A program made the translations under genes and the position numbers. DNA of 64,000 nt, from contig JAKQIY010000047.1 in assembly GCA_029561455.1 (NCBI GenBank), forward strand, positions 332 to 64,331, in the 5' to 3' direction. The DNA comes from a bacterium. GTDB taxonomy: Bacteria > Zhuqueibacterota > Zhuqueibacteria > Residuimicrobiales > Krinioviventaceae. How positions within the stretch are numbered: position 1 is the first letter of the stretch; every line of letters begins with the position of its first letter. Below the pieces are notes generated by a model. That model had not been told where the DNA came from. It ran no database searches and saw only the letters and a list, made by a program, of their open reading frames with translations. Positions 11,010 through 63,100 of this stretch are shown here, in pieces.

Positions 11010-14000
11010 TTAAAATAATGTTAACTGATCATCCTTTTTCTTTTTATATGTTTCCGTTTTCTCCCGGTTCAGCAGGCTGGCGGATATACCAGTCAGAAAA
11101 CGCGAAGGACTTTGGCTATGATGCTGCCCGAATAACAGCCGGCTTTTACAGTGAGTGAGATACAACTGCCGCTGTGCCCGCGTCATACCGACATACAGCA
11201 GCCTTTTTTCTTCCTCGATATCGGCAAGGCGGCCGGGCTGGCGATAAGGAATGATGGTTTCTTCGCAACCGGGTATAAACACCACCGGAAATTCGAGTCC
11301 CTTGGCGGCATGCAGGGTTAAAATATGCACTTTATCGGCGCGGTTGTCGAATTCATCGCTGGCGGCATGCAAAGCCAGGGCGTCGGTGAATTCCATCAGC
11401 CGATCGGCAAACGGCGCCGCCAGTTCCAGTAATTTACGTTTATCCTGCCGGTCGTCTTCAAGGTTGCCGGGAAAAAGCATAACCGTGAATTCCCAAATTT
11501 TTTCCAGATATTCGCAAACCGGCAAACCGGTTGGCAGGGATAGCAATATTGTCTGAAATACCTGGAATACCGGGTGGGGTTGTGGTTGTACAGCCGTTGT
11601 ATCTGTGTTTGTTTGAGTAAAACAAAGCGCCAATTCCCGGTATTGTATTGATTCTGCAAACGGATTTAGCATCCATCGTAAGGAAGCGGCAATAAACGCC
11701 ATACGCTCCTGGGCGGTGAGCCGGGAGTCGTCAAATGTTTCGAACGGAATGCCGGAGCGGGCAAGCGCTTCGACCAGGGGCGGAGCGAGACTGCGGGTGC
11801 GCAGCAGCACGGCTATATCGGCAAAGCTGTATGATTGCGGCAATCCGCGTTCGTCAACGCGATTGCTGTCCATTGAAAAAAAACTGACGCCGCCGATCAA
11901 CTGTTCGATAGTGTGAACGATATATTCCGCTTCGGCGCGGTCGGTTGGCGAGTTATGCAGGTTAACTTTGACCTCGGGAGCGATATTCGACCAGACCGCA
12001 TCAGCATCATTCCGTCCCGGACTATCCAGAATCTGCCGGGCTGCCAGAACAATATTTTGCGCCGAACGGTAATTACGGCGCAGTTTCATGGCAACGGCAT
12101 TGGGGAAATCGTTGGCGAACCGGTCAAAGTACTCCGGGCTGGCGCCCCTAAAGCCGTAAATCGCCTGATCCGGGTCGCCGATGACGCAGACATCCTGCGC
12201 TGCTACCGCCAGAATAACAAATAATTCATACTGAACGCGGTTAATATCCTGAAATTCATCCACCGCCAAAAATTGAGCGTTTTGCAACACCCGACGGCGC
12301 TGTTCGGGATCCTTACGTAACACCTGTAATGCCAGGCCGATCAGGTCGTCGTAATCCACACTGTTTGTATCTCTTAACAGCTGTTCATAGTTTTTATACA
12401 GAGTTTCAAATTGCTCCGGCAGGGTTTCTTTTATTTCTTTGGGAATGCCCTCCGGGTAATAGCCCTGACTTTTAAGCGCGGAAATAGTGTCCAGGGCGGA
12501 TTGAGTCAGCTTGAGGTTATAGTGCTCCTGAAATAATCTTTTGAAATAGGGGTCGTCAGTTGTATTTATAATTGTAAAATGCCTGGTGCGGCCAAAAAAG
12601 AAATCGGTTTGGCGTAGTATGTTGGCGCCCAGGGCGTGAAAGGTGGCGATATTGATTTGACCGGCGAGCTTTGCTCCAAGTTGGGCGAATAACCGGTCGC
12701 GCATTTCGCGGGCAGCTTTGTTGGTAAATGTAACTGCCAATACCTGTTGCGGTTGCGCCAGCCCGGAGGCGATCAATCCGGCAATACGTTGTGTGAGCGT
12801 GCGGGTTTTACCGGCGCCGGGTCCCGCCTGAATGATGAGCGGCGCGCCGTGATGCTGCACGGCGGCGAGTTGTTCAGCGTTCAGGCCATAATCAGCAGTT
12901 TTTTCTTGAACCATATTCACGACTACGCCGGCGGCAGGCTCCGCAACCGGCAGGGCCGTGTTATTTTTTTTAGCCGGTTTGGGGTTAACGGTGATACTCT
13001 CAAAGCCGAATAATTGTCCCTGCTGCAACAGGGTTTTGCGCTCATCCTCTTGAAAAATGTGAATAACGCCGTATTCGCCGTCATATCCCGGTATGGGCGA
13101 AACCTCGCCGGCCCGCATTCTGCGGATAGCTTCGGCCAGCAGCGAGCCCCCGGCGCTTTCCAGGTCGGACAGCGGCGTATCCATCAGGATCGTCAACTCC
13201 GGCCCCAACTCGCGCAACAGCATGGTGTACATGGTTTGTACGCTTTTCGAATTGGCGCCACTGGACTTGACTTCAGCGATCACTTCGGGTAAAGGAACAA
13301 GACTGGCAAAGTTTTTGGCATTGGCGGGTTTACCGCCTTCGGAACGATTGGCCAGTTCTTCCACACGGTAACTAACGCCCAGGGTAGAAGGCTTGCCGCA
13401 CACCGGGCACAGGCCTTTGTTTTGCATGGTCTCTTTGGGCAGGGTCATATAGCCGCACTTGCGATGCCCGTCGACATGGTACTTGCCTTCTTCGGGGAAA
13501 AATTCTATCGTGCCCCAAAAGTCGCTGCCGGTACGGTTTTTCAGGGCGGCGATCATGGCGTCGTAACCGATTTCGGTGTTAAACACATTCGCTTCGCGCG
13601 CCAGTTTGGCCGGGGAATGGGCGTCCGAGTTGGACACCAGGTTGTATTGATCGAGTATCGAGAGCCGCCAGTTCATAGGCGGATCGGAAGACAGCCCGGT
13701 TTCCAGGGCAAAAATGTGCTCCGACAGGTCGCCATAGCATTCCTGCACGCTGTCAAAACCGGATTTAGAGCCCAGTAACGAGAACCAGGGCGTCCAGATA
13801 TGCGCGGGAATGAGCACGGCGCGGGGATCGGAATCCAGTACCATTTCCAGCAGATCGCGGGAATCGAGTCCCAGTATCGGCCGGCCGTCGGAGCGGATAT
13901 TGCCGATACGTTCCAGCATTTGCTGGAATATGGCAACGGATTCGAGTGACGGGAACAGCACCACATTATGGACTTTGCGCACCTTGCCGTCTTTTTTATA

Positions 14001-14294
14001 GATATTGCTGATCTCGCCGGAGAGGATATAATAGACATCATTGGCGCAGGCGGTCGGAATTTCCCGCCGCATCGGCCCGGCATGGGTTTCTTTAAGCGTG
14101 TACAATCCCCCGGCGGCGCTTTCCTGTAATTTTTCCCGCATTTCTTCCAGCCAACGGGGATGGGTCAGGTCGCCGGTCGCCACAACCTGTAAGCCTTTGA
14201 GCTGCGCCCACTTGAACAGGTGTTCCAGGTTCAGGTCGGGACTGGTGGCGCGGGAGTAATGCGAATGAATGTGCAGATCGGCAATATAGCGCAT
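11010..14294 (-). CDS. PHP phosphoesterase domain fused to UvrD/PcrA-type SF1 helicase
   Basis: The N-terminus carries PHP motifs 'YIADLHIHSHYS' and 'NSDAHS', plus a CxxC element 'CPVCGKP'. From about residue 470 the Walker A 'AGPGAGKTRTLTQRIAGLI' and later UvrD motifs ('VDEFQD', 'LRRNYRS', 'LHAAKGLEFPVVFI') appear. Confidence 0.75.
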   Translation of the reverse strand: MRYIADLHIHSHYSRATSPDLNLEHLFKWAQLKGLQVVATGDLTHPRWLEEMREKLQESAAGGLYTLKETHAGPMRREIPTACANDVYYILSGEISNIYKKDGKVRKVHNVVLFPSLESVAIFQQMLERIGNIRSDGRPILGLDSRDLLEMVLDSDPRAVLIPAHIWTPWFSLLGSKSGFDSVQECYGDLSEHIFALETGLSSDPPMNWRLSILDQYNLVSNSDAHSPAKLAREANVFNTEIGYDAMIAALKNRTGSDFWGTIEFFPEEGKYHVDGHRKCGYMTLPKETMQNKGLCPVCGKPSTLGVSYRVEELANRSEGGKPANAKNFASLVPLPEVIAEVKSSGANSKSVQTMYTMLLRELGPELTILMDTPLSDLESAGGSLLAEAIRRMRAGEVSPIPGYDGEYGVIHIFQEDERKTLLQQGQLFGFESITVNPKPAKKNNTALPVAEPAAGVVVNMVQEKTADYGLNAEQLAAVQHHGAPLIIQAGPGAGKTRTLTQRIAGLIASGLAQPQQVLAVTFTNKAAREMRDRLFAQLGAKLAGQINIATFHALGANILRQTDFFFGRTRHFTIINTTDDPYFKRLFQEHYNLKLTQSALDTISALKSQGYYPEGIPKEIKETLPEQFETLYKNYEQLLRDTNSVDYDDLIGLALQVLRKDPEQRRRVLQNAQFLAVDEFQDINRVQYELFVILAVAAQDVCVIGDPDQAIYGFRGASPEYFDRFANDFPNAVAMKLRRNYRSAQNIVLAARQILDSPGRNDADAVWSNIAPEVKVNLHNSPTDRAEAEYIVHTIEQLIGGVSFFSMDSNRVDERGLPQSYSFADIAVLLRTRSLAPPLVEALARSGIPFETFDDSRLTAQERMAFIAASLRWMLNPFAESIQYRELALCFTQTNTDTTAVQPQPHPVFQVFQTILLSLPTGLPVCEYLEKIWEFTVMLFPGNLEDDRQDKRKLLELAAPFADRLMEFTDALALHAASDEFDNRADKVHILTLHAAKGLEFPVVFIPGCEETIIPYRQPGRLADIEEEKRLLYVGMTRAQRQLYLTHCKSRLLFGQHHSQSPSRFLTGISASLLNREKTETYKKKKDDQLTLF

Positions 14295-14569
14295 GATGCT
14301 CTTTGTTTTTTAGGGGATAAGATGAGTTAATTGCTTTAATATACTAGAAATCGTTGAGCATTCAAAATTGAAAAATTCTTGTGTGGAAAAGAGGGACTGT
14401 AATGTGTAGACATGATATTGGATTGAAGAGCGCCCTGTTGCAGGTTAATTTGATAGTAGAACATGCCAATTTAGACTGTAGCATTTATATAGTCAATTAT
14501 TATAAAGAATAGCTTGTTTTTCAGCAAGGCGCACTCGGTCATTATTTTGGGTTGCGACAGGTAAAGCCC

Positions 14570-16140
14570 GGAAACAGGGTGAATCTATACGAACGCGCCG
14601 GAAAAATAATTTTTTCGTAGGGCGAAGCGAACACAGCCGTCATCTCGATACGTTCTGAAAGATGAAGCAACGGGACTACTCAATGTCTATTATGCGTTTG
14701 TCATTCCAACGAGCGCAACAAGGAGAAAACATTAAGCTCATTGCCACGTCATTTATGACGTGGATTATAAAAACTAAACAAAATTGACTTTAGTCAAATA
14801 CTTGTTTAGGCTAAAGCCCTGTTTTTCCTTTATTTGTCCCACGACCTGAAGGTCGTGGCAATGATTGGGGCTTATTCACAAACCGGTCATCGAGTAGTCC
14901 GTCCCGCTTGGCGGGACGGACGTATCGAGACGACATTTCCTGGTCAGTATGCAACAAAATGGAGCCCCCCTCGTCGCACATACGGCACAAGCCTGGACAA
15001 GTTCGGAGTCAGAGTCTTGCCTTTATAGCAGTCCTGTGCCCCAGGTGGACCGCACTGATATTCTGCCGGGCCGCAGGCCCGACCTACAGAATAAACCCCG
15101 TCAGGAGTGTAATGCTATACGAACGCATCGGAAAAACAATTTTTTCGTGGGGCGAAGCGAACACAACCGTCATCTCGATACGTTCTGAAAGATGAAGCAA
15201 CGGGACTACTCAATGACTATTATGCGTTTGTCATTCCAACGAGCGCAACAAGGAGAAAACATTAAGCTCATTGCCACGTCATTTATGACGTGGATTATAA
15301 AAACTAAACAAAATTGACTTTAGTCAAATACTTGTTTAGGCTAAAGTCCTGTTTTTCCTTTATTTGTCCCACGATCTGAAGGTCGTGGCAATGATAGGGG
15401 CTTATTCACAAACCAGTCGTCGAGTAGTTCGTCCCGCTTGGCGGGACGGACGTATCGAGACGACATTTCCTGGTCAGTATGCAATAAAGTGTAGCCCACC
15501 TCGTCGCACATACTGCAAAAGTTTGATCAGGTTCGAATTCCTAGAATTTTCTTTATAGCAGACTCGTACCCCAGGTGGACCACACTGATATTCTGCCGGG
15601 CCGCAGGCCCGACCTACAGAATATACCCCGTCAGGGGTGTAATGCTATACGAACGCGCCGGAAAAATAATTTTTTCGTAGGGCGAAACGAACATAACCGT
15701 CATCTCGATACGTCCCGAAAGATAAAGCAACGGGACTACTCGATGACCATTATGCGCTTGTCATTCCAACGAGCGCAACAAGGAGAAAACATTAAGTTCA
15801 TTGCCACGTCATTTATGACGTGGATTATAAAAACTAAACAAAATTGACTTTAGTCAAATACTTGTTTAGGCTAAAGCCCTGTTTTTCCTTTATTTGTCCC
15901 ACGACCTGAAGGTCGTGGCAATGATAGGGGCTTATTCACAAACCGGTCGTCGAGTAGTCCATCCCGCTTGGCGGGACGGACGTATCGAGACGACATTTCC
16001 TGGTCAGTATGCAACAAAGTGGAGCCCCCCTCGTCGCACATCCAGCACAAGCCCGGTCAGGTTCGGAGTCATAGGGTTGTCTTTATGGCAGACTCATGCC
16101 CCAGGTGGACCACACTGAAACCTGCTGAGCTGCAAAACCG
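14570..16140. repeat. Tandem array of three 530-bp direct repeats (noncoding, highly structured)
   Basis: The marker 'ctatacgaacgc' recurs at 14585, 15115 and 15645. Identical spacing of 530 bp is seen between the artefactual ORFs at 14834, 15364 and 15894. Units are about 90-95% identical and each contains several perfect hairpins. Confidence 0.9.
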
Positions 16141-16197
16141 GCTAAAGCCGGGACTACAAACATGGCCGAAAGATGATGTTTACAATCCGAATAATGC

Positions 16198-16974
16198 TTA
16201 TATCTTGAATTTCAGGATCACCGGACAATGGTCGGAACCATATACGGCGGGTGTAATATAGCAGTCCGTTACCTGCGGCGCAAGTTCTGCGGACACAAAA
16301 AAATAGTCGATCCGCCAGCCGACATTTTTTGCGCGGGCGTTGGCCCAGTATGCCCACCAGGTATACTGCGCCGCTTCATCCGGATGAAAAAGCCGAAAAG
16401 CATCCACATACCCGTGGGCAATGAATTTATCGATCCAGGCGCGTTCTATAGGCAAAAAACCGGACTGATCGGCGTTGCTTTTGGGATTTTTCAGGTCGAT
16501 CTCGCGGTGGGCGGTATTGTAATCCCCGCAAATAACCAGCTTTTTGCCCTGACTGCGCAGGATTTGGCAATAATTTAGCGTGGCGTCGTAAAAAGCCAGT
16601 TTATAATCCAGCCGCTCCTGGCTTTGCTTACCGTTCGGGAAATAGATATTCAATAAAGTGAACTCTGGATAATCGAGCGCCAGGATCCGGCCTTCGGCGT
16701 CTTTGTTGTCCGCGCCAAACCCATAGCCGATGGTCACCGGCGGGGTTTTGACAAAACAGGCGACTCCGGAATATCCCGGTTTTTGCGCCTCGTTCCAATA
16801 AGAAGAATAGCCGTTTGCCAAATGTAACTCATCCCGTACCTGTTCATAATTTGCTTTGGTCTCCTGCAATGCTGCAATGTCCAGTATTTCCGTCGCCAGC
16901 CAATCGAAAAAGCCTTTTTTTACCACCGCGCGAAAACCGTTCACATTCCATGTCGCCAGTTTAATTTCGGGCAT
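16198..16974 (-). CDS. xthA: Exodeoxyribonuclease III (AP endonuclease)
   Basis: 'MPEIKLATWNVNGFRA' and the conserved ExoIII catalytic residues are present across 258 aa. Confidence 0.85.
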   Translation of the reverse strand: MPEIKLATWNVNGFRAVVKKGFFDWLATEILDIAALQETKANYEQVRDELHLANGYSSYWNEAQKPGYSGVACFVKTPPVTIGYGFGADNKDAEGRILALDYPEFTLLNIYFPNGKQSQERLDYKLAFYDATLNYCQILRSQGKKLVICGDYNTAHREIDLKNPKSNADQSGFLPIERAWIDKFIAHGYVDAFRLFHPDEAAQYTWWAYWANARAKNVGWRIDYFFVSAELAPQVTDCYITPAVYGSDHCPVILKFKI

Positions 16975-31411: not shown

Positions 31412-32062
31412 ATGATGATTAGACAAAACCCCAAAGTCAGTCTCAAGTATAAATATAAAAAGAATATGGAACTTGGACTGATAATCACCCTGTTTTTATT
31501 GATTCTGATTTTTCAGGGCTGGAAAAAGTTTGAAAGTGAAACCAAAAAGCAGGAGCGGGTTAATATTACTATAGAAGTACAGGAAATCCCGCAAACTGAG
31601 CAGGAAAAAAAGCCGCCAGCCCCTACACGTCCGGCTATACCGATTGAAAGCGAAAGCGATGATATCGATGAAGATGAAACAATCGAGACCACAGAAATAA
31701 ACCTGGACGAGTTGCCGACTCCTCCTCCACCCCCGGAAGAAGACGTCGATGATGAATCTGCAATCTTTGTAGCTTATGATGAAGCCCCGGAACCCATTGG
31801 TGGATTTGCGGCTATCCAGCGTAATCTGGTTTATCCTGAAATTGCCCGCAAAGCCGGCGTTGAAGGTAAAGTGGTTGTTAACTGCCTCGTAGATGAAAAA
31901 GGTAATGTTGTTAAAACTACTATTTTGAAATCTCTGGGCAATAACGGTTGTGATGAAGCGGCTGTTGCTGCGATCAAATCCGTTAAATGGAAACCCGCCA
32001 AACAACGCGATAAATCGGTTAAAGTTTGGATCGGTATTCCTGTGGTATTCAAGTTGAAGTAA
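31412..32062 (+). CDS. tonB: TonB energy transducer (Pro-rich linker, TonB_C domain)
   Basis: An N-terminal TM segment is followed by 'PTPPPPPEE' and a C-terminal 'GVEGKVVVNCLVDEKGNV'. Confidence 0.7.
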   Translation: MMIRQNPKVSLKYKYKKNMELGLIITLFLLILIFQGWKKFESETKKQERVNITIEVQEIPQTEQEKKPPAPTRPAIPIESESDDIDEDETIETTEINLDELPTPPPPPEEDVDDESAIFVAYDEAPEPIGGFAAIQRNLVYPEIARKAGVEGKVVVNCLVDEKGNVVKTTILKSLGNNGCDEAAVAAIKSVKWKPAKQRDKSVKVWIGIPVVFKLK

Positions 32063-32173
32063 GCAGTATTACTTAAAAAAACGAATTTCAATATTTTTTA
32101 TTGATTGGATAAAAGTTCGTTTTAAGACTACTGGAATATATGATATAGTGTTTATTAGTAATAGCAGTAATTA

Positions 32174-32204
32174 GAGAGCCGGTTTTAAAACCGGCTCTTT
32201 TGTC
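32174..32204 (+). terminator. Rho-independent terminator after tonB copy 1
   Basis: Hairpin 'gagagccggtttt-aa-aaccggctct' followed by 'tttgt'. Confidence 0.6.
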
Positions 32205-32360
32205 AGTCCCTTTTAACGAGTAATCATGCGGACTGATAGCCAGGTAAAAGTGGAACACAATTTAATAGTAATCCATATAGAAACAAGGCAGATTAAGAAG
32301 CACTATTAAATATCTATATTCAACATTCAACAAGAATCTCTTTTGCGGGAGGGCACTACC

Positions 32361-33008
32361 ATGAGAAAGAAACAAATCTCCACTGTCAGTCTCAAGAATA
32401 AATATAGCAAAAATATTGAACTTGGACTGTTGTTAACTTTGTTTTTGTTAATTGTAGTATTTCAGGGGTGGAAAAGGTTTGATACCGTAGTTAAAGAACA
32501 GCCGCCTGTAAAATTTACTTTTACAGTAACAGATGTATTACAAACCGAACAGAAAAGAACCCTGCCTGCGCCAAGTCGTCCATCTATCCCAATCGAGAGC
32601 GAAAATGAAGATATTGATGATGATGAAACTATTGAATCTTCAGAAATTAATATTACCGATATATTAACTCCTCCTCCGCCCCCGGCTGATGATGTTACCG
32701 AGTCAGTTCCTTTTATATCTTTTGATGAACCTCCGATGCCAATAGGCGGTTATGCTGCATTCCAGCGAAATTTAATTTACCCGGAAATTGCCCGCAAAGC
32801 CGGAGTTGAAGGTAAAGTTTATGTAAACTGCCTTATTGATGAAAAAGGTAACGTTGTTCAAACAGTTATTATAAAATCTTTGGGCAATAATGGATGCGAT
32901 GAAGCGGCTATTGCTGCGATCAAATCCGTCAAGTGGATCCCGGCCAAACAGCGTGATAAAGCGGTCAAAGTATGGATTAGCATCCCTGTGGCATTTAAAC
33001 TGAAATAA
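32361..33008 (+). CDS. tonB: TonB paralog 2
   Basis: The ATG at 32361 follows a 'gggaggg' ribosome-binding site. The architecture matches the upstream copy, with 'PPPPPADD' and 'GVEGKVYVNCLIDEKGNV'. Confidence 0.7.
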   Translation: MRKKQISTVSLKNKYSKNIELGLLLTLFLLIVVFQGWKRFDTVVKEQPPVKFTFTVTDVLQTEQKRTLPAPSRPSIPIESENEDIDDDETIESSEINITDILTPPPPPADDVTESVPFISFDEPPMPIGGYAAFQRNLIYPEIARKAGVEGKVYVNCLIDEKGNVVQTVIIKSLGNNGCDEAAIAAIKSVKWIPAKQRDKAVKVWISIPVAFKLK

Positions 33009-33083
33009 GCAGATAATGCAAATTATCTGGTTTATTGAATTGTAATAACAGACCAGATTTTTTGTAACAATTTTCACTATTGA

Positions 33084-37570: not shown

Positions 37571-38347
37571 CTACGCTATAACAATAGTGCGCGCAGGTTG
37601 TTTTTCCTTGCCGACGCCCAGTTTGGTTTCCAGGCAGTTGATCACAATCAGAGCCGCAGACTGGGGCGTGAGATGCTGCATATTCAACACCAGGTCGTAA
37701 GCCGTGTGATCATTAGCGCTGCGGTGAAAATAGCGCTGCACAAAGGCAAAGCGGTTACTGTCGACCAGCGACACCACTTTTTTAGCTTCTTTTACCGGCA
37801 GTTCCCGCGCATGGGCAATCTTTTCCACCCGGTAGTCCAGCGGCGCGGTGATCATAATGCGTAACGAATGTTTGGGGTCGACAATAAAATTGGCGCCCCT
37901 GCCGATGATGATCGCCCGGCCTTGTTCGGCAATGGCCTCGATCACGGCATGCAGGAGGTGAAAATATTTGTCGATACCGAGAGCGTCTTTATCCAGCATG
38001 GTTTGCAAAAAGTTGTGCGTCTGGTTTTGTTTACGCTCGTCAAACGGCGCGACGATGCGGTTGCGAAGCTGGCCCGATTGGGCAATATATTCGACAAGCT
38101 CTTTATCATAGATCTGCCAATGTAACATTTCCGCTATTTTTTCCGCCACATCATCCCCGCCGGCGCCATGCGTCCGCGAAATGGTAATAATCGCGTGGTC
38201 AAGGGAATCGGCGCCGCCGGCCTTTTGCTGCCGTTTTTGAATTTGTTGTTTCACTTCCCAAATAGCAACCTGGCCTTTGATCAGCCGGTTCCAGTTGAGT
38301 TGTTCATTATGGTTAGCAGGCATGGCAACCTCCTCTGTTTGGTTCAT
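37571..38347 (-). CDS. Cytidylate-kinase-like family (AAA/P-loop) protein
   Basis: 'ITISRTHGAGGDDVAEKIAEML' is a degenerate P-loop of the Cytidylate_kin2 type. Confidence 0.5.
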   Translation of the reverse strand: MNQTEEVAMPANHNEQLNWNRLIKGQVAIWEVKQQIQKRQQKAGGADSLDHAIITISRTHGAGGDDVAEKIAEMLHWQIYDKELVEYIAQSGQLRNRIVAPFDERKQNQTHNFLQTMLDKDALGIDKYFHLLHAVIEAIAEQGRAIIIGRGANFIVDPKHSLRIMITAPLDYRVEKIAHARELPVKEAKKVVSLVDSNRFAFVQRYFHRSANDHTAYDLVLNMQHLTPQSAALIVINCLETKLGVGKEKQPARTIVIA

Positions 38348-38559: not shown

Positions 38560-39200
38560 AATTTACCGTATGAAAACAAGACGATCTTATATTCCCGGCT
38601 GGGTGCCCCGGAACCAGGGTGAATCCCTATGAATGAGCTGGAAAAACAATTTTTGTAGGGGCGAAGCATCTGTTCCGGACTTACTTTTCATGTCAACTGA
38701 TCCCGGTAAAGATGCTTCGCCCGGATGAATAACAATCCCGGTCCGCATTAAAGTCTATCCCACCTCTCCGCAAATACAGCATAAACCCGGACAGGTTCGG
38801 TGTCAAAGTGCTTTCTTTATAGAAACCCTGTGCCCCAGGTGGACTCCACTGAAATGCTGCCGGGCCGCTTTTCGCTCATCTCGTTACGTCCCGGAAGGTA
38901 AAGCAAAGGGACTAGTCGATGACCGTAATATATTTTAGAAAAACCGGTCGTCGAGTAGGGCCGTACATGGTCTTGAGTGACGAACTACACCAGGTATATA
39001 GCAGCATTACAGCAGATGCAGATTCGGCCCGTATCGAGACGACATTTTCTGACCCGAGTACATTAAAGTCTAGCCCACCTCGCCGCAAATACAACACAAG
39101 CATGGACAAGTTCGAAGTCATAGTACCTTCTTTATAGCAATCTTGTACCCCAGGTGGACAAAACTGAAATGGTGCCGGATCGCAGAGCAGAACGGCCAAG
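38560..39200. repeat. Two degenerate copies of the 14.6-kb repeat family (dispersed copy)
   Basis: The blocks '...cctc(g/t)ccgcaaatac...ggacaggttcgg...ctttatag(a/c)a...ccccaggtggac...cactgaaatg(c/g)tgccgg' are shared with the units at 14.57-16.14 kb. A perfect 13-bp hairpin 'gggcgaagcatct...agatgcttcgccc' is present. Confidence 0.75.
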
Positions 39201-39326: not shown

Positions 39327-40757
39327 ATGGAAAGAAAGAAAAAACGGCTGGCTAATGTTCCTGAGGATTTGCAGGACTATAAAAGCAAAGCCAAACTGTG
39401 GTTCGGCGGCCTGTTTGCGCCGGATCGTGAAATATATATTGCCAGGGCGCCGGCCCGCCTGGATGTGATGGGCGGTATTGCCGATTACTGCGGTGCAGTA
39501 GCGCTGCAGGGTGTTTTAAAGCAAGCCGCTGTGGTAGGCATACAGCTGCGCCGCGACCGCCGCTTGCTGGTCAAATCCGTTGGCATCGAAAATGACGGCT
39601 TTCGCTCGATTGCCGATTATGACCTTGACCGGTTTTATGACACTGGCGCGGTGAAATCTTTTGCAAACATTCGCCAGGATTTACTCAAAGACCCCTCGAC
39701 CCTGTGGATGGCATACGTACTCGGCGCATACCCGGTACTGCTGCATGAAAAAATTGCCGGACAATTCGGCAACGGCGCGACGATTTGTATTAAAAGCAAC
39801 ATACCGGTACAAGCCGGTCTCGGCGCTTCTTCCGCCCTGGTTATGGCTACTCTATTGGCCATGAAACAGGCGTATAGCCTGGCGCCGGATGCATTTCAAC
39901 TGGCAAAATGCTGCCAGCAAGTGGAGCAGCAAATAATCGGCGTTCCCGGCGGTATTGTTGCGCCGCTCACTTCGGCTATGGGCAAAAACGGCAAGCTGCT
40001 GGTCATTCGCTGCCAGCCCCATGAATTATTGAAAATGATCACGTTACCGGCGGATATTCAGTTTATCGGCATCAACTCCCGCATCAAACCTGCGAATGAT
40101 CATAACCATTATATCGATTCCCGTACGGCTGCACTTTTAGGTAGAAAAATACTTATTGCCCGGTTGCAGGAACAGGGAGTCGCCAATCCTTTTAACGGGT
40201 ATCTTTGCAACCTGGCGGCGGAACATTGGCAGGAGCGCTATCAAAACCTGCTGCCGGAACAAATGACCGGACGCAAATTTCTGGATCAGTATGCCGGGCA
40301 CGATGATGAAATGACGGAGATCGAACTTAAAAAAACGTATCATGTACAAAATTGCGCCGCTTTCCCGGTATATGAAAATGCCCGGGTACAAAAATTCATC
40401 AAAAAGCTGGAAACCTATACGCAGACCGGCAACCGCACCATCCTGGCAGAAGCCGGAGAGTTGATGTACGAATCCCATGCCGCTTACAGCGAGCTTGTTA
40501 ACCTGGGAACCAACGAGACGGATATTCTGGTCTCGCTGGTTAAAAAACTGGGGCCGGAGAACGGGTTATATGGCGCCAGGGTATCCGGCAATGGCGGCGG
40601 CGGCACTGTTGTCGTGCTCACCGCCAAAAATAATGAAGATACGATCAGAAATATTACTTCGCAGTATTATGACCAAACCGGGTTCAAGCCGGATATTTTT
40701 ACGGAATCGTCACCCGGCGGGTTGGAACTTGGCGCCGAAACGATCAAATTTACCTAG
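39327..40757 (+). CDS. GHMP-family sugar kinase (galacto-/fucokinase-like)
   Basis: 'LDVMGGIADY' at the N-terminus, the 'GLGASSALVMATLLAM' phosphate-binding loop, and a C-terminal 'GARVSGNGGGG' are present. Confidence 0.65.
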   Translation: MERKKKRLANVPEDLQDYKSKAKLWFGGLFAPDREIYIARAPARLDVMGGIADYCGAVALQGVLKQAAVVGIQLRRDRRLLVKSVGIENDGFRSIADYDLDRFYDTGAVKSFANIRQDLLKDPSTLWMAYVLGAYPVLLHEKIAGQFGNGATICIKSNIPVQAGLGASSALVMATLLAMKQAYSLAPDAFQLAKCCQQVEQQIIGVPGGIVAPLTSAMGKNGKLLVIRCQPHELLKMITLPADIQFIGINSRIKPANDHNHYIDSRTAALLGRKILIARLQEQGVANPFNGYLCNLAAEHWQERYQNLLPEQMTGRKFLDQYAGHDDEMTEIELKKTYHVQNCAAFPVYENARVQKFIKKLETYTQTGNRTILAEAGELMYESHAAYSELVNLGTNETDILVSLVKKLGPENGLYGARVSGNGGGGTVVVLTAKNNEDTIRNITSQYYDQTGFKPDIFTESSPGGLELGAETIKFT

Positions 40758-57771: not shown

Positions 57772-60018
57772 CTAATCTTTTACACAGCGGATGGAAAAGC
57801 CAAACTTTTTATTGTTATCATAACGATAAATGATTGGTGTACCAAAATCCATTAACCGATTCCAGGCGTTTGTGCCGGAGCTTTCTGTTGCAGTCCAAAT
57901 TATTGTTCCGGATCCTAAATTGCTATAATCACCATAGTCATAACGATAGCCGGCGGGCAAGGCTGTAAATCCATATTCGTTGGTAGCGCCTTCATTGGGG
58001 AATTCCCAATGAACAGTTCCAGTTTCTTTCAGTTTTCCTCCTTCATTAGAGCCCCTGAGGTCTGTTAGATCTGCTTGTTCCCGGCTCATACCTATGGTCA
58101 TTTCCAGTTGTTTCCATTCCTCATCGCTGGGCACATGCCAGCCGGACGGTGCAATTTGTCTCCCGTCATGAACGGCAAGCCAGTTATAAAGACAACTATA
58201 GGTGGAAATATTATTGACATCATTATAGTAACAGCACCAGGCGCCGGTGGTTAGTGAGGTCCATTCTCCATTATTGGTAATATTGGGAATGACGTCACCG
58301 TTACGGTAATGCGTCACCTTGAGATTTTCCGCCATCCACCATTGCTCGCCGATCATAATCGTTTTGTAGACATTACCATCGATATCGGTCACGGTTCCGG
58401 TAATAAAAGAAATGGTTGTAAAGCTCCAGGGATCAGTCCACGCGGTAGTAGCGCCGTTGTTTGTGGCATTGACCCGCCAATAATAAGTAACTCCACCAGA
58501 TAGTCCGTTCACCTGGAAAGATGTTGTGGTTATACCCTCCTCATCTATAATCAATGTGCTAAAATCCGGTTGTGTAGAAACCTGAAGTCCATAGGTTTTC
58601 GCACCACCTGTGGCTATCCAGGTTAACATTGGAAGAACTGTTATACCCGTATCACCATTTGCCGGAGAGGATAGCGCCGGAAGGTTGGGTAAACTTCCAT
58701 TGAGGATGCAGCGTACCGAAAAGCCTTTTTGCTTTTCAAATAACCCTCTATAAACTTTGACACTATCGGAAAGTAAGATACGACTCCATGCAAAAGAGTC
58801 ACTATAGTCGCTGGCGCTCCAGAAAGAGGCTAATATTCCCAAAGGGTCAAAGGCGCCATAAAAATAGCGTGACCCGCCGGGCAATACGGTAAAGCCTGTT
58901 TCATTTGTCGCCCCTGCATTGGGGGCTTCCCAATGAGTTGTGCCGGTTTCTTTAAGTTTGCCGCCCTGGGTGGTTCCGCGCCAGTATTGGTCATCGGCCT
59001 CCTGGCGGTTCATCCCCAGGCTAATTTCAAGTTGCTTCCATTCCTCATCTGTGGGAAGATGCCAATCTAAGGGAGCAAGGTTACGGTTATCGTTAACAGC
59101 AAACCAGTTATAAAGATAGCCATAGGTAGCAACATTATTTTGTTCATCTGCGGCGGCGCACAAGGCCCCGGTAGTTAAAGAACTCCATCCCGTATCATCG
59201 GTAATGTTTGGTAATGCATCTCCATTACGATAATGGGTCACTTGCAGGTTTTCCGCCATCCACCATTGCTCGCCGATTTTTACAGTGCGGTAGACATTGC
59301 CGTCAATATCCGTTACGGTGCGGATAACGTTTATATTAAATACTTTGTTTCCCATAATCTGCACATCATGCTGCTCCCAGGTTTCAATATCCTTACTGGA
59401 AACCCGCAGCAGGTAATTGTTGGATTGGGCTTTGTACAAGCCGCTTTGTCCAGCCCCGGCGGCTGAACTGGATGCGGAAATATTGCCCAGGTGGCCATCC
59501 AGCAACAGCATTTTACGGGTGATCCTTTTTCCCTCGGTTATCATAGTATAAAGGTATACTCCCGCGGAGACGCCCCGGCCCTGGTCGTTGATTCCATTCC
59601 ATAAAATATGACCATAAAGATCGGTTTGCCAGGCATCCAGCAAAGTTTTGATCTTTTGTCCCAGCACATTATAAATTTCAATGCGCACCTGCGCGGGATG
59701 GGGTATTTCATAACTTATTACTGTTGACGGATTGAACGGATTAGGATAGTTTTGCAGCAACTGAAATGCGCCCGGCTTTTGCGCGGGCGTTTCGTCGATC
59801 CCGGTTTCGGTTATGGTGATGGAGTATTGACCCTGGGCATCGGTGATCCCATTAAAACACCTGTCGGCATTGGCTTGGTCGATCACCTCGATAAAGGCAT
59901 TCTCCACAGGCTCGGCGCCGTTATCCGTTACCACGCCCTGTAAGACAATTTGCGCATTCAGGCAGCCGGCGAGCATAAAGAGAGCAATAAATACAATAAG
60001 CAAATAACGGCGGGACAT
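57772..60018 (-). CDS. Secreted multidomain protein: CarboxypepD_reg-like + T9SS-type sorting-like domain (N-proximal) + 2x Fib_succ_major domains + FN3-like
   Basis: The signal peptide is followed by 'QGVVTDNGAEPV' and 'LLQNYPNPFNPSTVISYEIPHPAQVRIEIYNVLGQKIKTLLDA'. The two repeat modules carry 'DGNVYRTVKIGEQWWMAENL...YGYLYNW...GWHLPTDEEW...GGKLKE...GFSVRC'. Confidence 0.65.
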   Translation of the reverse strand: MSRRYLLIVFIALFMLAGCLNAQIVLQGVVTDNGAEPVENAFIEVIDQANADRCFNGITDAQGQYSITITETGIDETPAQKPGAFQLLQNYPNPFNPSTVISYEIPHPAQVRIEIYNVLGQKIKTLLDAWQTDLYGHILWNGINDQGRGVSAGVYLYTMITEGKRITRKMLLLDGHLGNISASSSAAGAGQSGLYKAQSNNYLLRVSSKDIETWEQHDVQIMGNKVFNINVIRTVTDIDGNVYRTVKIGEQWWMAENLQVTHYRNGDALPNITDDTGWSSLTTGALCAAADEQNNVATYGYLYNWFAVNDNRNLAPLDWHLPTDEEWKQLEISLGMNRQEADDQYWRGTTQGGKLKETGTTHWEAPNAGATNETGFTVLPGGSRYFYGAFDPLGILASFWSASDYSDSFAWSRILLSDSVKVYRGLFEKQKGFSVRCILNGSLPNLPALSSPANGDTGITVLPMLTWIATGGAKTYGLQVSTQPDFSTLIIDEEGITTTSFQVNGLSGGVTYYWRVNATNNGATTAWTDPWSFTTISFITGTVTDIDGNVYKTIMIGEQWWMAENLKVTHYRNGDVIPNITNNGEWTSLTTGAWCCYYNDVNNISTYSCLYNWLAVHDGRQIAPSGWHVPSDEEWKQLEMTIGMSREQADLTDLRGSNEGGKLKETGTVHWEFPNEGATNEYGFTALPAGYRYDYGDYSNLGSGTIIWTATESSGTNAWNRLMDFGTPIIYRYDNNKKFGFSIRCVKD

Positions 60019-60132
60019 GTTTCCTCCATAGCAGTTGATAATATTTTTATTTTACATTAAAACAGCTTTTATAAAATCCGCACAAGGGGCTTGTTACCCC
60101 TTGTGCAGCTGCTAAATAACATTTTTTAAATC

Positions 60133-63100
60133 TTAATCTTTTACGCAGCGGACGGAAAAGCCATATTGTTTTTTATCATCCATACGTCGAATTGTTTGAA
60201 CATCATACTTTAAGGAACGATAGTAACTTGTCAGAGTGTCCGACTCGGAACTTGTACAAGTCCAAAATAGTGCGCTTGTTCCAATCTCGGAAAAAGCTCC
60301 GGTACGCGCACTGCAATAGCCGAAAGATAAAGCAGTAAATCCCGATTCGTTTGTTGCGCCTGTATTTGGATTATTCCAATGCGTTAACCCGGTTTCTTTT
60401 AACATACCGCCTTCATTCCTACCGCGAAAACCTGAATTATCGACTTCTTCCTGCGTCATTCCCAGGTGTTTTTCCAGTATTTTCCAATCTTCATCGGTTG
60501 GTACATGCCAGCCTTCCGGGGCAATATTCCGCTCGTCGACAGTGGCAAACCAGTTATATAAACTGCCATAAGTAGCCATTAAACTGTTATCATTGTTTAA
60601 GCTACACCATGCGCCGGCTTGCGTTTCCATCCATGCCGTGCTGTCCGTAATATTGGGTATTGCTTCGCCATTGCGATAATGTGTTACTTGTAAATTTTCC
60701 TGCATCCACCACTGCTTACCGATGCGGACTGTTTTATATACATTGCCGTCAATATCTGTAACTGAACCGGTTACCGGAACCGACGATACTGTTGTAAGAC
60801 TCCAGGGTTCCGACCAGGGACTGGTTCCTTCAGTGTTCTTTGCATTAACCCGCCAGTAAAAAGTTGTCGCCGGGGTAAGGGTAAACACTTTAAAGGTGGT
60901 AGAGTCAATATTACTTTGGTTAACTATGAGTCCTGAGAAATCAGGGTTTAGAGCAACTTGCAGGCTATAAGAGAGCGCCCCATTTACTTCATGCCAACGC
61001 AGGATTGGACTTTTTGGCACATCAATTTCATTATTTTCTACTGAAATATGCACCGGCGCATTTGGAGGGGTAGAGTATTTCATTAAACGAATTGAACAAC
61101 CGCAACTGGATTGATTATTGCGATTGTTAATTTCTGACCATTCACTGATTCTTCTATGGATTGCCCGGTAGCCGCCGTCTGATGTGCTTGTCCAAAAAGT
61201 TGAAGCTTCACCTAATCCGTCAAAAGAACCATTTGAACTCCTTTGACCACCAGGCAGGGCAGTAAAACCGCTTTCATTAGTTGCATTATCGTTTGGCGCC
61301 TTCCAGTGTAAAGTACCTGTTTCTCTTAGCTTGCCGCTAACATTAAACCAAATTATCCAGGTGCTGTCTTCTTCATCAGGTCTCATGCCGAGTAATGTTT
61401 CCATTTCTTTCCATTCATTATCGGTCGGAACTTTCCAGCCTTCAGGAGCAATTCCCCGTTCATCACCCACAACATACCAATTATAAAGATGACCATAAAT
61501 GGCATTATTTACTTCTTTATTTAAATAATTGCACCAGGCGCCGCTTTGGGTATTATTGGTATCGTGCCATTCGTCATCACCGGTTAAATAAGAAATTTCA
61601 TCGCCGTTATTGTAATGAGATACTTTCAGGTTTTCTGTCATCCACCACTGATTACCGATCAACACCGTATTATAAATATTGCCGTCATAATCGGTTACCG
61701 TGCCTTTTTCATATATTGCCGTTGTAAAATTAATGTATTCGGACCAGTTACTGGTACCGTTGGGACATGAAGCATTGACACGCCAGTAATAGGTTGTTCC
61801 CTCAGATAATCCGGTTACCAGGAAGGAATTGGAAGATATATGATCTTCATTTATGAAAAGATTTGTAAAAACCGGGTTGGTGGAAACCTGCAAACCATAC
61901 CATTCCTCACCGCCCCTTGGGTGCCAGCTTAAAGTTACACTGGTGTACAACCCGGTTGTATTAGCTTCAGGAGCAAGGTTCGATGGTGTATTGGGACTGC
62001 CACCATATAGAACACAGCGTACCGAAAATCCCTTGTTGAGTTTTTCTTTTTCACGGTAAATTGCGGTTTCAGTAGAATTAAGATTCCTGTAAAAAGCATG
62101 ATCTTCATTATAAATAGCATTAGCCCAAAAAAATGCATTGGTGTTCATATCGCTATACGAACCATCTTCATTGCGGTAGCCACCGGGCAAAGCGTTGAAT
62201 CCATATTCATTGGTTGCCCCTGTATTGGGATTCGTCCAATGGGTTGTGCCGCTTTCTTTCAATTTTCCCCCCTGGTCGGTACCTCGCCAATAAGATATTC
62301 CAAGCTGTAATTCATCAATACCCAAAGTCCTTTCCAATTCCTGCCAATCCTGGTCTGTGGGCACACGCCAGCCCTCCGGGGCCAAATCGGAAGTATCATT
62401 CACAGCATACCAGTTATACAAAAGACCATAGGTTGTTATGTTATCGTCATCTTTATTATAACTGCACCGTGCTCCGGAAGTGGCTTTTTTCCACTGCAAG
62501 TCGTTCAGCATACTTTTAATAAATATGCCGTTACGGTAATGAGTTGTTTTCAGATTTTCCGCCATCCACCATTGATTACCGATTTTTACGGTACGGTATA
62601 CGTTACCGTCAAAGTCCGTTACTGTACGAATGACATTTACATTTATAACCTTGTTTTCATTGATGAGTACATCCTGCTGTTCCCAGGTTTCAATATCCGT
62701 TCCGGAGACCCGCAGCAGAAATGTGAACGATTGTGGTTTCAGCAGGCCGGGTTGACCTGCGTAAACCGGCGCGGCTGCATTGGAGGTACTTACTTCGCCA
62801 AGATGACCATCCAGCAGCAGCATCTTGCGGTTGATTCTTTGTCCCTCGCTGAACAGAGAGTAAAAATACACTCCGGCGGAAACGCCCCGGCCCTGGTCGT
62901 TTGTGCCGTCCCAAATGATCTTTCCATAAAGATTGGTTTGCTGGGCATCCAGTAAGGTTTTGATCTTTTGTCCCAATACATTATATATTTCAATGCGCAC
63001 CTGGGCAGGGTGAGGTATTTCATAGCTAATCACTGTAGAGGGATTGAATGGATTGGGATAGTTTTGTAACAGGTTAAAAGAACGGGGTTTTTGACCGGTA

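Follow-up and report, generated by a model that had tools for sequence, protein, structure and literature searches.

The interval between a helicase gene and xth, the gene for exodeoxyribonuclease III, in the 64,000-nucleotide stretch of bacterial DNA analyzed here (the window, part of contig JAKQIY010000047.1) contains an array of three head-to-tail 530-bp mosaic units (14562-16147, plus strand), which was delimited by repeat, profile and alignment searches. With a probability of about 0.8, we regard this array as a tandemly amplified cluster of extragenic palindromic repeats that is composed of non-autonomous hairpin elements and resembles both the clusters formed by REPINs (inverted doublets of repetitive extragenic palindromic (REP) sequences) and bacterial interspersed mosaic elements (BIMEs). 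The central module of the unit, B, consists of the two ends of an IS200-group transposon without its transposase gene. An earlier reading made from the letters only (the sequence-only reading) had compared the array to the type I toxin-antitoxin long direct repeats (ldr/rdl) of enterobacteria, and had listed a tandem family of structured non-coding RNAs (ncRNAs) and a mobile repeat of the miniature inverted-repeat transposable element (MITE) kind as alternatives. The last of these was essentially borne out, because halves of B flank a transposase gene elsewhere. The array is a known kind of repeat cluster and the more exotic readings are unsupported: it is neither a new toxin-antitoxin system nor a large RNA gene, and a false lead is thereby removed.

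The array and its central module B

Unit starts at 14562, 15092 and 15622, located by a repeat search and by nhmmer, give spacings of exactly 530 and 530 bp for units u1 (14562-15091), u2 (15092-15621) and u3 (15622-16147), all on the plus strand; in u3, homology fades over the final ~30 nt. The marker ctatacgaacgc recurs at 14585, 15115 and 15645, and two unit probes of 32-34 nt each had 3 matches in the 64-kb window, where shuffled sequences are expected to give 0. Units u1 and u2 share 91.5% identity in an ungapped comparison, identity rises to 93-94% over the initial 300 nt of the units, and a MAFFT alignment had a mean column identity of 91%. The sequence-only reading was thus right about the period, the three head-to-tail copies, their identity of roughly 90-95% and their location between the helicase gene and xth, as well as about the lack of a transposase, reverse transcriptase, integrase or cas gene nearby, which holds for the annotation within ~10 kb. 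Its description of the array as perfect applies to the period and not to the sequence, since the units are only ~91% identical. Tandem Repeats Finder called no repeat in the array because its longest period of 500 is shorter than 530.

Profile searches resolved the unit into a string of modules, H (unit positions 1-77), Al (78-131), I (132-175), B (176-303), J (304-322), Ar (323-375) and T (376-530). Module B (14737-14864 in u1, 15267-15394 in u2 and 15797-15924 in u3) comprises 128 nt with the termini TCATTGCC and GGCAATGA and contains four hairpins. In u1, these are H1 (14744-14763, CCACGTCAT-TT-ATGACGTGG, loop TTTA), H2 (14784-14797, TTGACTTTAGTCAA, loop TTTA), H3 (14809-14818, loop TAAA) and H4 (14839-14858, CCACGACC-TGAA-GGTCGTGG). 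The H3-H4 pair is the inverted image of the H1-H2 pair: H1 and H4 have the form CCACGnnn-loop-nnnCGTGG with the loops TTYA and TRAA and are flanked by ATTGCC and GGCAAT, while H2 is GGC-TTTA-GCC and H3 is GGC-TAAA-GCC, so that the loops are kept as TTYA/TTTA on the left and TAAA/TRAA on the right. All hairpins named in the sequence-only reading are present, although the first had been mis-transcribed and correctly reads as H4 is given above. Among 20 diverse copies of B, 90.6% of the cells were paired and 14 pairs were changed on both sides, a pairing level that was reached by none of 500 shuffles and not approached by slid controls. The hairpin potential of B is therefore maintained.

The origin of B became apparent from a scan of metagenomes with the pattern TCATTGCCACGNCNNNNNNGNCGTGG, which is common to both arms of the central palindrome and retrieved at least 113 loci. 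Among the more divergent matches, an open reading frame (ORF) of 139-144 amino acids repeatedly abuts B, and these ORFs are homologous to each other. They matched the Pfam model Y1_Tnp with 90-94 bits (cut-off 23) and the NCBIfam model NF033573 for IS200/IS605 transposases with 63.6-65.2 bits (cut-off 55). At L174, L189/L148, L147/L108, L119 and L123, the left half of B precedes and the right half follows this tnpA ORF, in the arrangement ATTGCC-H1, ~22 nt, H2, 10-20 nt, ATG ... stop, H3, ~22 nt, H4-GGCAAT. Altogether, B halves exactly flank a gene for an IS200-like Y1 (HUH) transposase of ~140 amino acids at about 8 distinct loci of other bacteria, and B could be aligned with the tnpA flanks of L174, L189, L147, L119, L201, L203 and L209. 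Loci of the L174 type had been chosen by the B-end pattern, whereas the homologues P0014, P0063 and P0073 came from a search by protein similarity only; each of these three genes has B-type ends as well, which shows that the link between B and tnpA is not an ascertainment effect.

At L201 and L174, a full copy, a copy with tnpA remnants and a minimal B occur side by side in one orientation. The L201 cluster (L201:3650-4760) consists of a copy with a 3' tnpA remnant, a full tnpA copy and a minimal B, situated between cytochrome-c assembly and heme-biosynthesis genes. In another organism (L174:3950-5260), a tnpA copy resides inside a regular tandem array of B with a conserved spacer of ~85 nt, and in one B copy of this locus H2 and H3 are fused into a single GGCTTTAGCC hairpin. 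As the same halves flank tnpA and deletion intermediates occur, B is a tnpA-less derivative of this small transposon. The sequence comparisons show it to be the left end (ATTGCC-H1-H2) joined to the right end (H3-H4-GGCAAT) of an IS200-group transposon from which a Y1 (HUH) tnpA of ~430 bp was deleted. The sequence-only reading had itself named homologues flanked by a transposase elsewhere among the findings that would refute it. With such homologues at hand, the toxin-antitoxin and ncRNA readings are refuted on its own terms and the MITE-like alternative is upheld.

With 3,280 homologues at E<1e-20, this is a large group of transposases; its members are named RayT at JGI and IS200/IS605 at NCBI and are found in metagenome-assembled genomes (MAGs) labelled Bacteroidota, Ignavibacteria or Melioribacteraceae. 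Many close homologues are each recorded on one or a few contigs only. P0014 is encoded between cytochrome-c assembly and heme genes, and P0063 and P0073 each occupy the same site in several samples. The low number of contigs per homologue, the surroundings of housekeeping or cas genes and the shared sites form a pattern that, by analogy, looks like that of RAYTs, the REP-associated tyrosine transposases. No close plasmid copy of the transposase was found, the best being 40% identical. A regular expression for the RAYT motif, HxH...YxxNP, gave no match and was too strict, as the motif here is Y-I-x-N-Q. At L203:1-3444 (also L204 and L205), P0063 with its B-type ends is located between a Cas7-family gene and cas4-cas1, in a cas operon that includes a gene for a Csd1-family protein as well. 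Several samples share this position of the transposase gene.

A dispersed, mosaic repeat family

Searches with nhmmer, using unit and module profiles, detected modules of the family, in varying order and with different periods, at no fewer than 25 further intergenic loci. These belong to relatives and to metagenomes in which this organism is itself present, and they include large digester contigs. The array in the window has the composition [H Al I B Ar T] at 530 bp, whereas [B Ar T] recurs with a period of ~384 bp in L104/L196, [Al Ar B Ar T] with ~590 bp in L186, and B alone three times with ~352 bp in L093; B is also found as a singleton. Al directly abuts Ar in L186, in L198 and at 38876 in the window. 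The latter belongs to a second family locus (38606-39190, plus strand) with H, T, Al plus a variant long Ar hairpin, and T, but no B, which lies between the divergent genes 37571-38347 (minus strand) and 39327-40757 (plus strand). All copies of the family are extragenic in the sense that no copy lies inside a long ORF, and the neighbouring genes are co-directional, convergent or divergent. The repeat is absent from 80 syntenic helicase loci of GTDB species representatives, which have at most 72% protein identity and do not include this organism, and synteny therefore yielded no homologues.

Module Al (14639-14692, 15169-15222 and 15699-15752) is an imperfect palindrome of ~50 nt, GTCATCTCGATACG-TCCCG...CGGGA-CTACTCGATGAC, and Ar (14884-14936, 15414-15466 and 15944-15996) is an inverted palindrome of the Al type with a different apical hairpin, GTCCGTCCCGC-TTG-GCGGGACGGAC. 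By their sequences, Al and Ar are one and the same imperfect palindrome of ~50 nt in opposite orientations, and its apical hairpin comes in two versions. The sequence-only reading was right that a segment of ~50 nt has its reverse complement downstream; the spacing is ~245 nt, and the two segments are this inverted pair rather than a long-range helix. Module H (14562-14638, 15092-15168 and 15622-15698, plus strand) carries small hairpins of the types ACCCCGTCAGGGGT and CGGAAAAA..TTTTTTCG. Module I (14693-14736, 15223-15266 and 15753-15796, plus strand) is a linker that includes a small hairpin as well as the motif AAGGAG and is present in some arrays only. T (14937-15090, 15467-15620 and 15997-16147, plus strand) is a third module of ~155 nt that is bounded by inverted repeats, the conserved blocks AAAGTGTAGCCCACCTCG and CCCCAGGTGGACCACACTG around a variable centre, followed by a GGGCCGCAGGCCC hairpin.

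The array is flanked by a gene for a PHP-domain/UvrD-PcrA-like helicase of 1094 amino acids (11010-14294, minus strand), the 5' end of which faces the array, and by xth (16198-16974, minus strand), which faces it with the 3' end. The contig carrying the window stems from an anaerobic-digester metagenome (JGI 3300010355, Ga0116242_10000008). Five other, independent assemblies of this organism with an identical xth (L002-L006) all end inside the array, so that five of six assemblies stop within the repeat, and a dispersed family makes chimeric joins conceivable. It is nevertheless highly improbable that the three copies, or the adjacency of xth and the helicase gene, are an artefact of mis-joining through the dispersed repeat. 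The units differ from each other at 45-67 positions, which makes a collapsed repeat or a duplicated loop in the assembly graph unlikely, and L002, an independent NCBI MAG contig, spans u3 and 53 nt of u2 and reproduces the exact junction between them. Furthermore, a look-up of the helicase gave further places with mostly the same neighbouring genes, and comparable multi-unit arrays are present on many other contigs. The collapsed-repeat artefact considered in the sequence-only reading is not borne out by these data. Instead, contigs of this genome are systematically interrupted by the repeat family, which accounts for the breaks at the xth site in assemblies of the digester organism.

Two further sets of repeats lie elsewhere in the window. 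Five tandem paralogous repeats (58000-63100) with a spacing of 924-1446 bp and 60-80% identity look like a tandem paralogous gene family, and two 300-nt direct repeats 946 bp apart with 80% identity (31766-33011) are probably neighbouring paralogous genes.

Candidate RNA, peptide and host functions of the array

Folding of a single unit gave -194.6 kcal/mol for the minus strand (z = -6.8) and a z of -4.8 for the plus strand. Together with the compensatory changes in the B hairpins and a core that is better conserved than its flanks, this would be in line with tandem genes for structured ncRNAs of ~300-450 nt per unit, each closed by an Al/Ar helix. We consider this improbable. From unit position 78 to 375, the unit profile and its reverse complement match each other, indicating that the good folding reflects a large imperfect palindrome and favours neither strand; being a palindrome, the unit is strand-symmetric in structure. 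Mismatches in the B hairpins were G.T in 16 and A.C in 14 cases, and since these numbers are roughly equal, there is no sign of selection on the RNA of one strand. Module T showed no covariation (consensus energy -9.8 kcal/mol, covariation term +0.54), and the inspected arms of the Al/Ar helices are nearly invariant or changed without consistent compensation, which also speaks against a long-range helix conserved by covariation. A search against Rfam 15, as proposed in the sequence-only reading, gave 0 matches at the gathering score across the 64-kb window; the best sub-threshold match in the region was psRNA14 (31 bits compared to a gathering score of 60). Moreover, modules are freely recombined from one locus to another, copies are found with all orientations of the neighbouring genes, and B is demonstrably built of transposon ends. 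A tandem ncRNA family is not borne out by these observations.

Several minor candidates for RNA or promoter elements were discarded. psRNA14 and the second sub-threshold match, rteR, are chance matches to AT-rich hairpins, and no Rfam family was found at E<=1 either. A tRNA-like reading of GGTTCGAAT in T was dropped because Rfam gives no support for it, and sigma-54 or Bacteroidetes-type promoters that were sought by eye in T did not fit. Consensus scans for promoters and terminators were uninformative.

The analogy with ldr/rdl loci implied that each unit encodes a toxic peptide of 34-41 amino acids under the control of an antisense RNA. The period of ~530 bp and the number of three copies indeed resemble the long direct repeats of E. 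coli, and a small ORF is present in all three units, as the sequence-only reading had stated. Conservation of this ORF as 41 codons, however, did not hold. In u1, the ORF (14662-14787) encodes 41 amino acids, but in u3 the first ATG is ATA, leaving 34 codons, and the copies differ by S/T and L/F changes in addition to the synonymous cgt/cgc exchange. The ORF runs from Al/I across the module boundary into the left half of the transposon-derived B, and module I is missing from most arrays. In other loci that do have module I, the frame is interrupted by in-frame stops (L154) or an early stop (L088), or continues into an unrelated tail of 55 amino acids (L186 and L142). The peptide has no hydrophobic segment that could form a transmembrane stretch, and the array has no nucleotide match in 5,426 E. 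coli genomes. Because the ORF is not conserved and the peptide not hydrophobic, the toxin reading fails, and of all explanations considered here a type I toxin-antitoxin array has the most negligible probability.

A role of the array for the host has a better standing, even though we still regard it as unlikely. Irrespective of a transposon origin, the array might be a domesticated architectural or regulatory element which, by analogy with BIMEs, would bind nucleoid proteins or gyrase with its hairpins, or stabilize or attenuate the xth-helicase transcript. Divergence between units is only 2.3-4.0% in the palindromic core (unit positions 78-375), compared to 14-20% in T and 6-11% in H (Fisher p 6e-8 to 2e-3), so that the core is kept at 96-98% identity while flanks have drifted to 80-86%. 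This difference suggests concerted evolution or selection of the core; it could result from gene conversion, from selection for hairpin integrity or from an intrinsically variable centre of T. The existence of tandem clusters with an ordered arrangement has been taken as a hint at specific roles (PMC3116915). The RAYT-like occurrence of the transposase homologues on few contigs, among housekeeping or cas genes and in two cases at a constant site, also fits with domestication. On the other hand, copies are located not only at 3' ends but also in promoter regions between divergent genes, and the strong variation of module composition from locus to locus speaks against a single, fixed function.

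A tandemly amplified cluster of transposon-derived palindromes remains our preferred reading, and a possible course of events can be outlined. B-type elements would be mobilized, now or formerly, in trans and as single-stranded DNA by a Y1 transposase, as known IS200/IS605 and RAYT enzymes lead us to assume. By the same analogy, this transposase would recognize the subterminal hairpins together with the conserved ATTGCC flank. Unequal recombination or replication slippage may then have amplified the composite unit, including flanks, to three copies, and gene conversion or selection for hairpin integrity may have kept the palindromic core more uniform than the flanks. Any effect on the host would be secondary: in minus-strand read-through from xth, the array with its ~10 hairpins in each unit could function as an attenuator or stabilize the 3' end of the mRNA, or its hairpins could bind nucleoid proteins.

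Some observations weigh against this reading. No gene for a Y1 transposase was found in the window or in the examined loci attributable to this organism, and current mobility of the elements here is therefore hypothetical; the homologues P0014, P0063 and P0073 led to non-digester samples (for example record WOOD18 and a MAG named Bacteroidota) and not to this organism. With the RayT model NF047646, the tnpA ORFs scored only 25.7-35.6 bits, below the cut-off of 80. No target-site signature and no pair of empty and filled sites were identified, and the flanks of B copies show no obvious duplication. The ends of classical IS200/IS605 elements are not inverted repeats of each other, whereas the ends observed here are mutually inverted. 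The contrast between 2.3-4.0% divergence in the core and 14-20% in T could instead point to a function of the core that is selected by the host. We rate a broader and more speculative scenario as rather doubtful: bacteria of the Fibrobacteres-Chlorobi-Bacteroidetes (FCB) group, here of Bacteroidota/Ignavibacteria-like affiliation, may vertically maintain an uncharacterized REPIN-RAYT-like partnership of an IS200-group transposase and four-hairpin inverted ends. In the present organism, its derivatives may have been combined with two further types of palindromes into the Al-I-B-J-Ar 'super-palindrome' of ~300 nt, which would be actively homogenized or selected because of a benefit to the host, for instance as a structural RNA or DNA element between the two DNA-repair genes. 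Halves of the TCATTGCCACGTCATTTATGACGTGG type around a single tnpA in this organism would constitute a REPIN-RAYT-like system; without tnpA, the copies would be orphan, decaying elements.

Comparison with known repeat systems

Similarity to the ldr/rdl loci of E. coli is limited to the period of ~530 bp, the threefold tandem repetition and a small ORF. There is no homology, the ORF in our array is neither conserved nor hydrophobic, and the family is dispersed, mosaic and linked to a transposase. The BIMEs of E. coli combine two palindrome subtypes in alternating orientation with extra motifs, in tandem and in intergenic regions. The module maps and the inverted Al and Ar copies document the same mosaic-in-tandem organization in the array. 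In contrast to true relatives of the enterobacterial palindromic units, it has no sequence similarity to them and no match in E. coli, and its units are several-fold larger.

Palindrome-associated transposable elements (PATEs) are MITE-like derivatives of IS200/IS605 elements. As in PATEs, tnpA is internally deleted in the family described here, two hairpin-bearing ends are left and intermediates coexist with full copies; B, which has the ends without tnpA, agrees with the definition of such an IS200/IS605-derived MITE. Unlike in IS200/IS605 elements, no tnpB/omega-RNA component is present.

REPIN clusters and the REPIN-RAYT system have been described in Pseudomonas and Enterobacteria (Bertels & Rainey 2011, PMC3116915; Bertels et al. 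2017, PMC5581495). Both there and here, imperfect extragenic palindromes occur in many copies, with at least 25 loci of our family and 2 loci within the 64-kb window, and the replicative unit consists of two inverted, hairpin-bearing halves, which in B are H1-H2 and H3-H4 with the termini TCATTGCC and GGCAATGA and 14 doubly changed pairs. In both systems, ordered tandem clusters take in flanking sequence, and elements nest or adjoin. At about 8 distinct loci of other organisms, repeats of our family also lie in opposite orientations on either side of a Y1/HUH transposase gene, as they do in REPIN-RAYT systems. The differences are also clear. The transposase fits the IS200/IS605 model and not RayT, and consequently does not belong to the RAYTs in the strict sense of the protein model; a cognate transposase was not located in this organism, neither in the window nor in its examined loci. 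Each half of B has two hairpins and an ATTGCC flank instead of one REP with GTAG, the 530-bp tandem unit is much longer and combines three types of palindromes, and the hosts are Bacteroidota/Ignavibacteria-like. REPIN/BIME-like repeat biology, which has mostly been studied in Proteobacteria, is thus documented in uncultured bacteria of the FCB group. The end signature of their Y1 transposase group, ATTGCC-CCACGnnn-TTYA-nnnCGTGG ... GGCTTTAGCC, offers a means of annotating such elements and of marking probable break points of contigs in MAGs.

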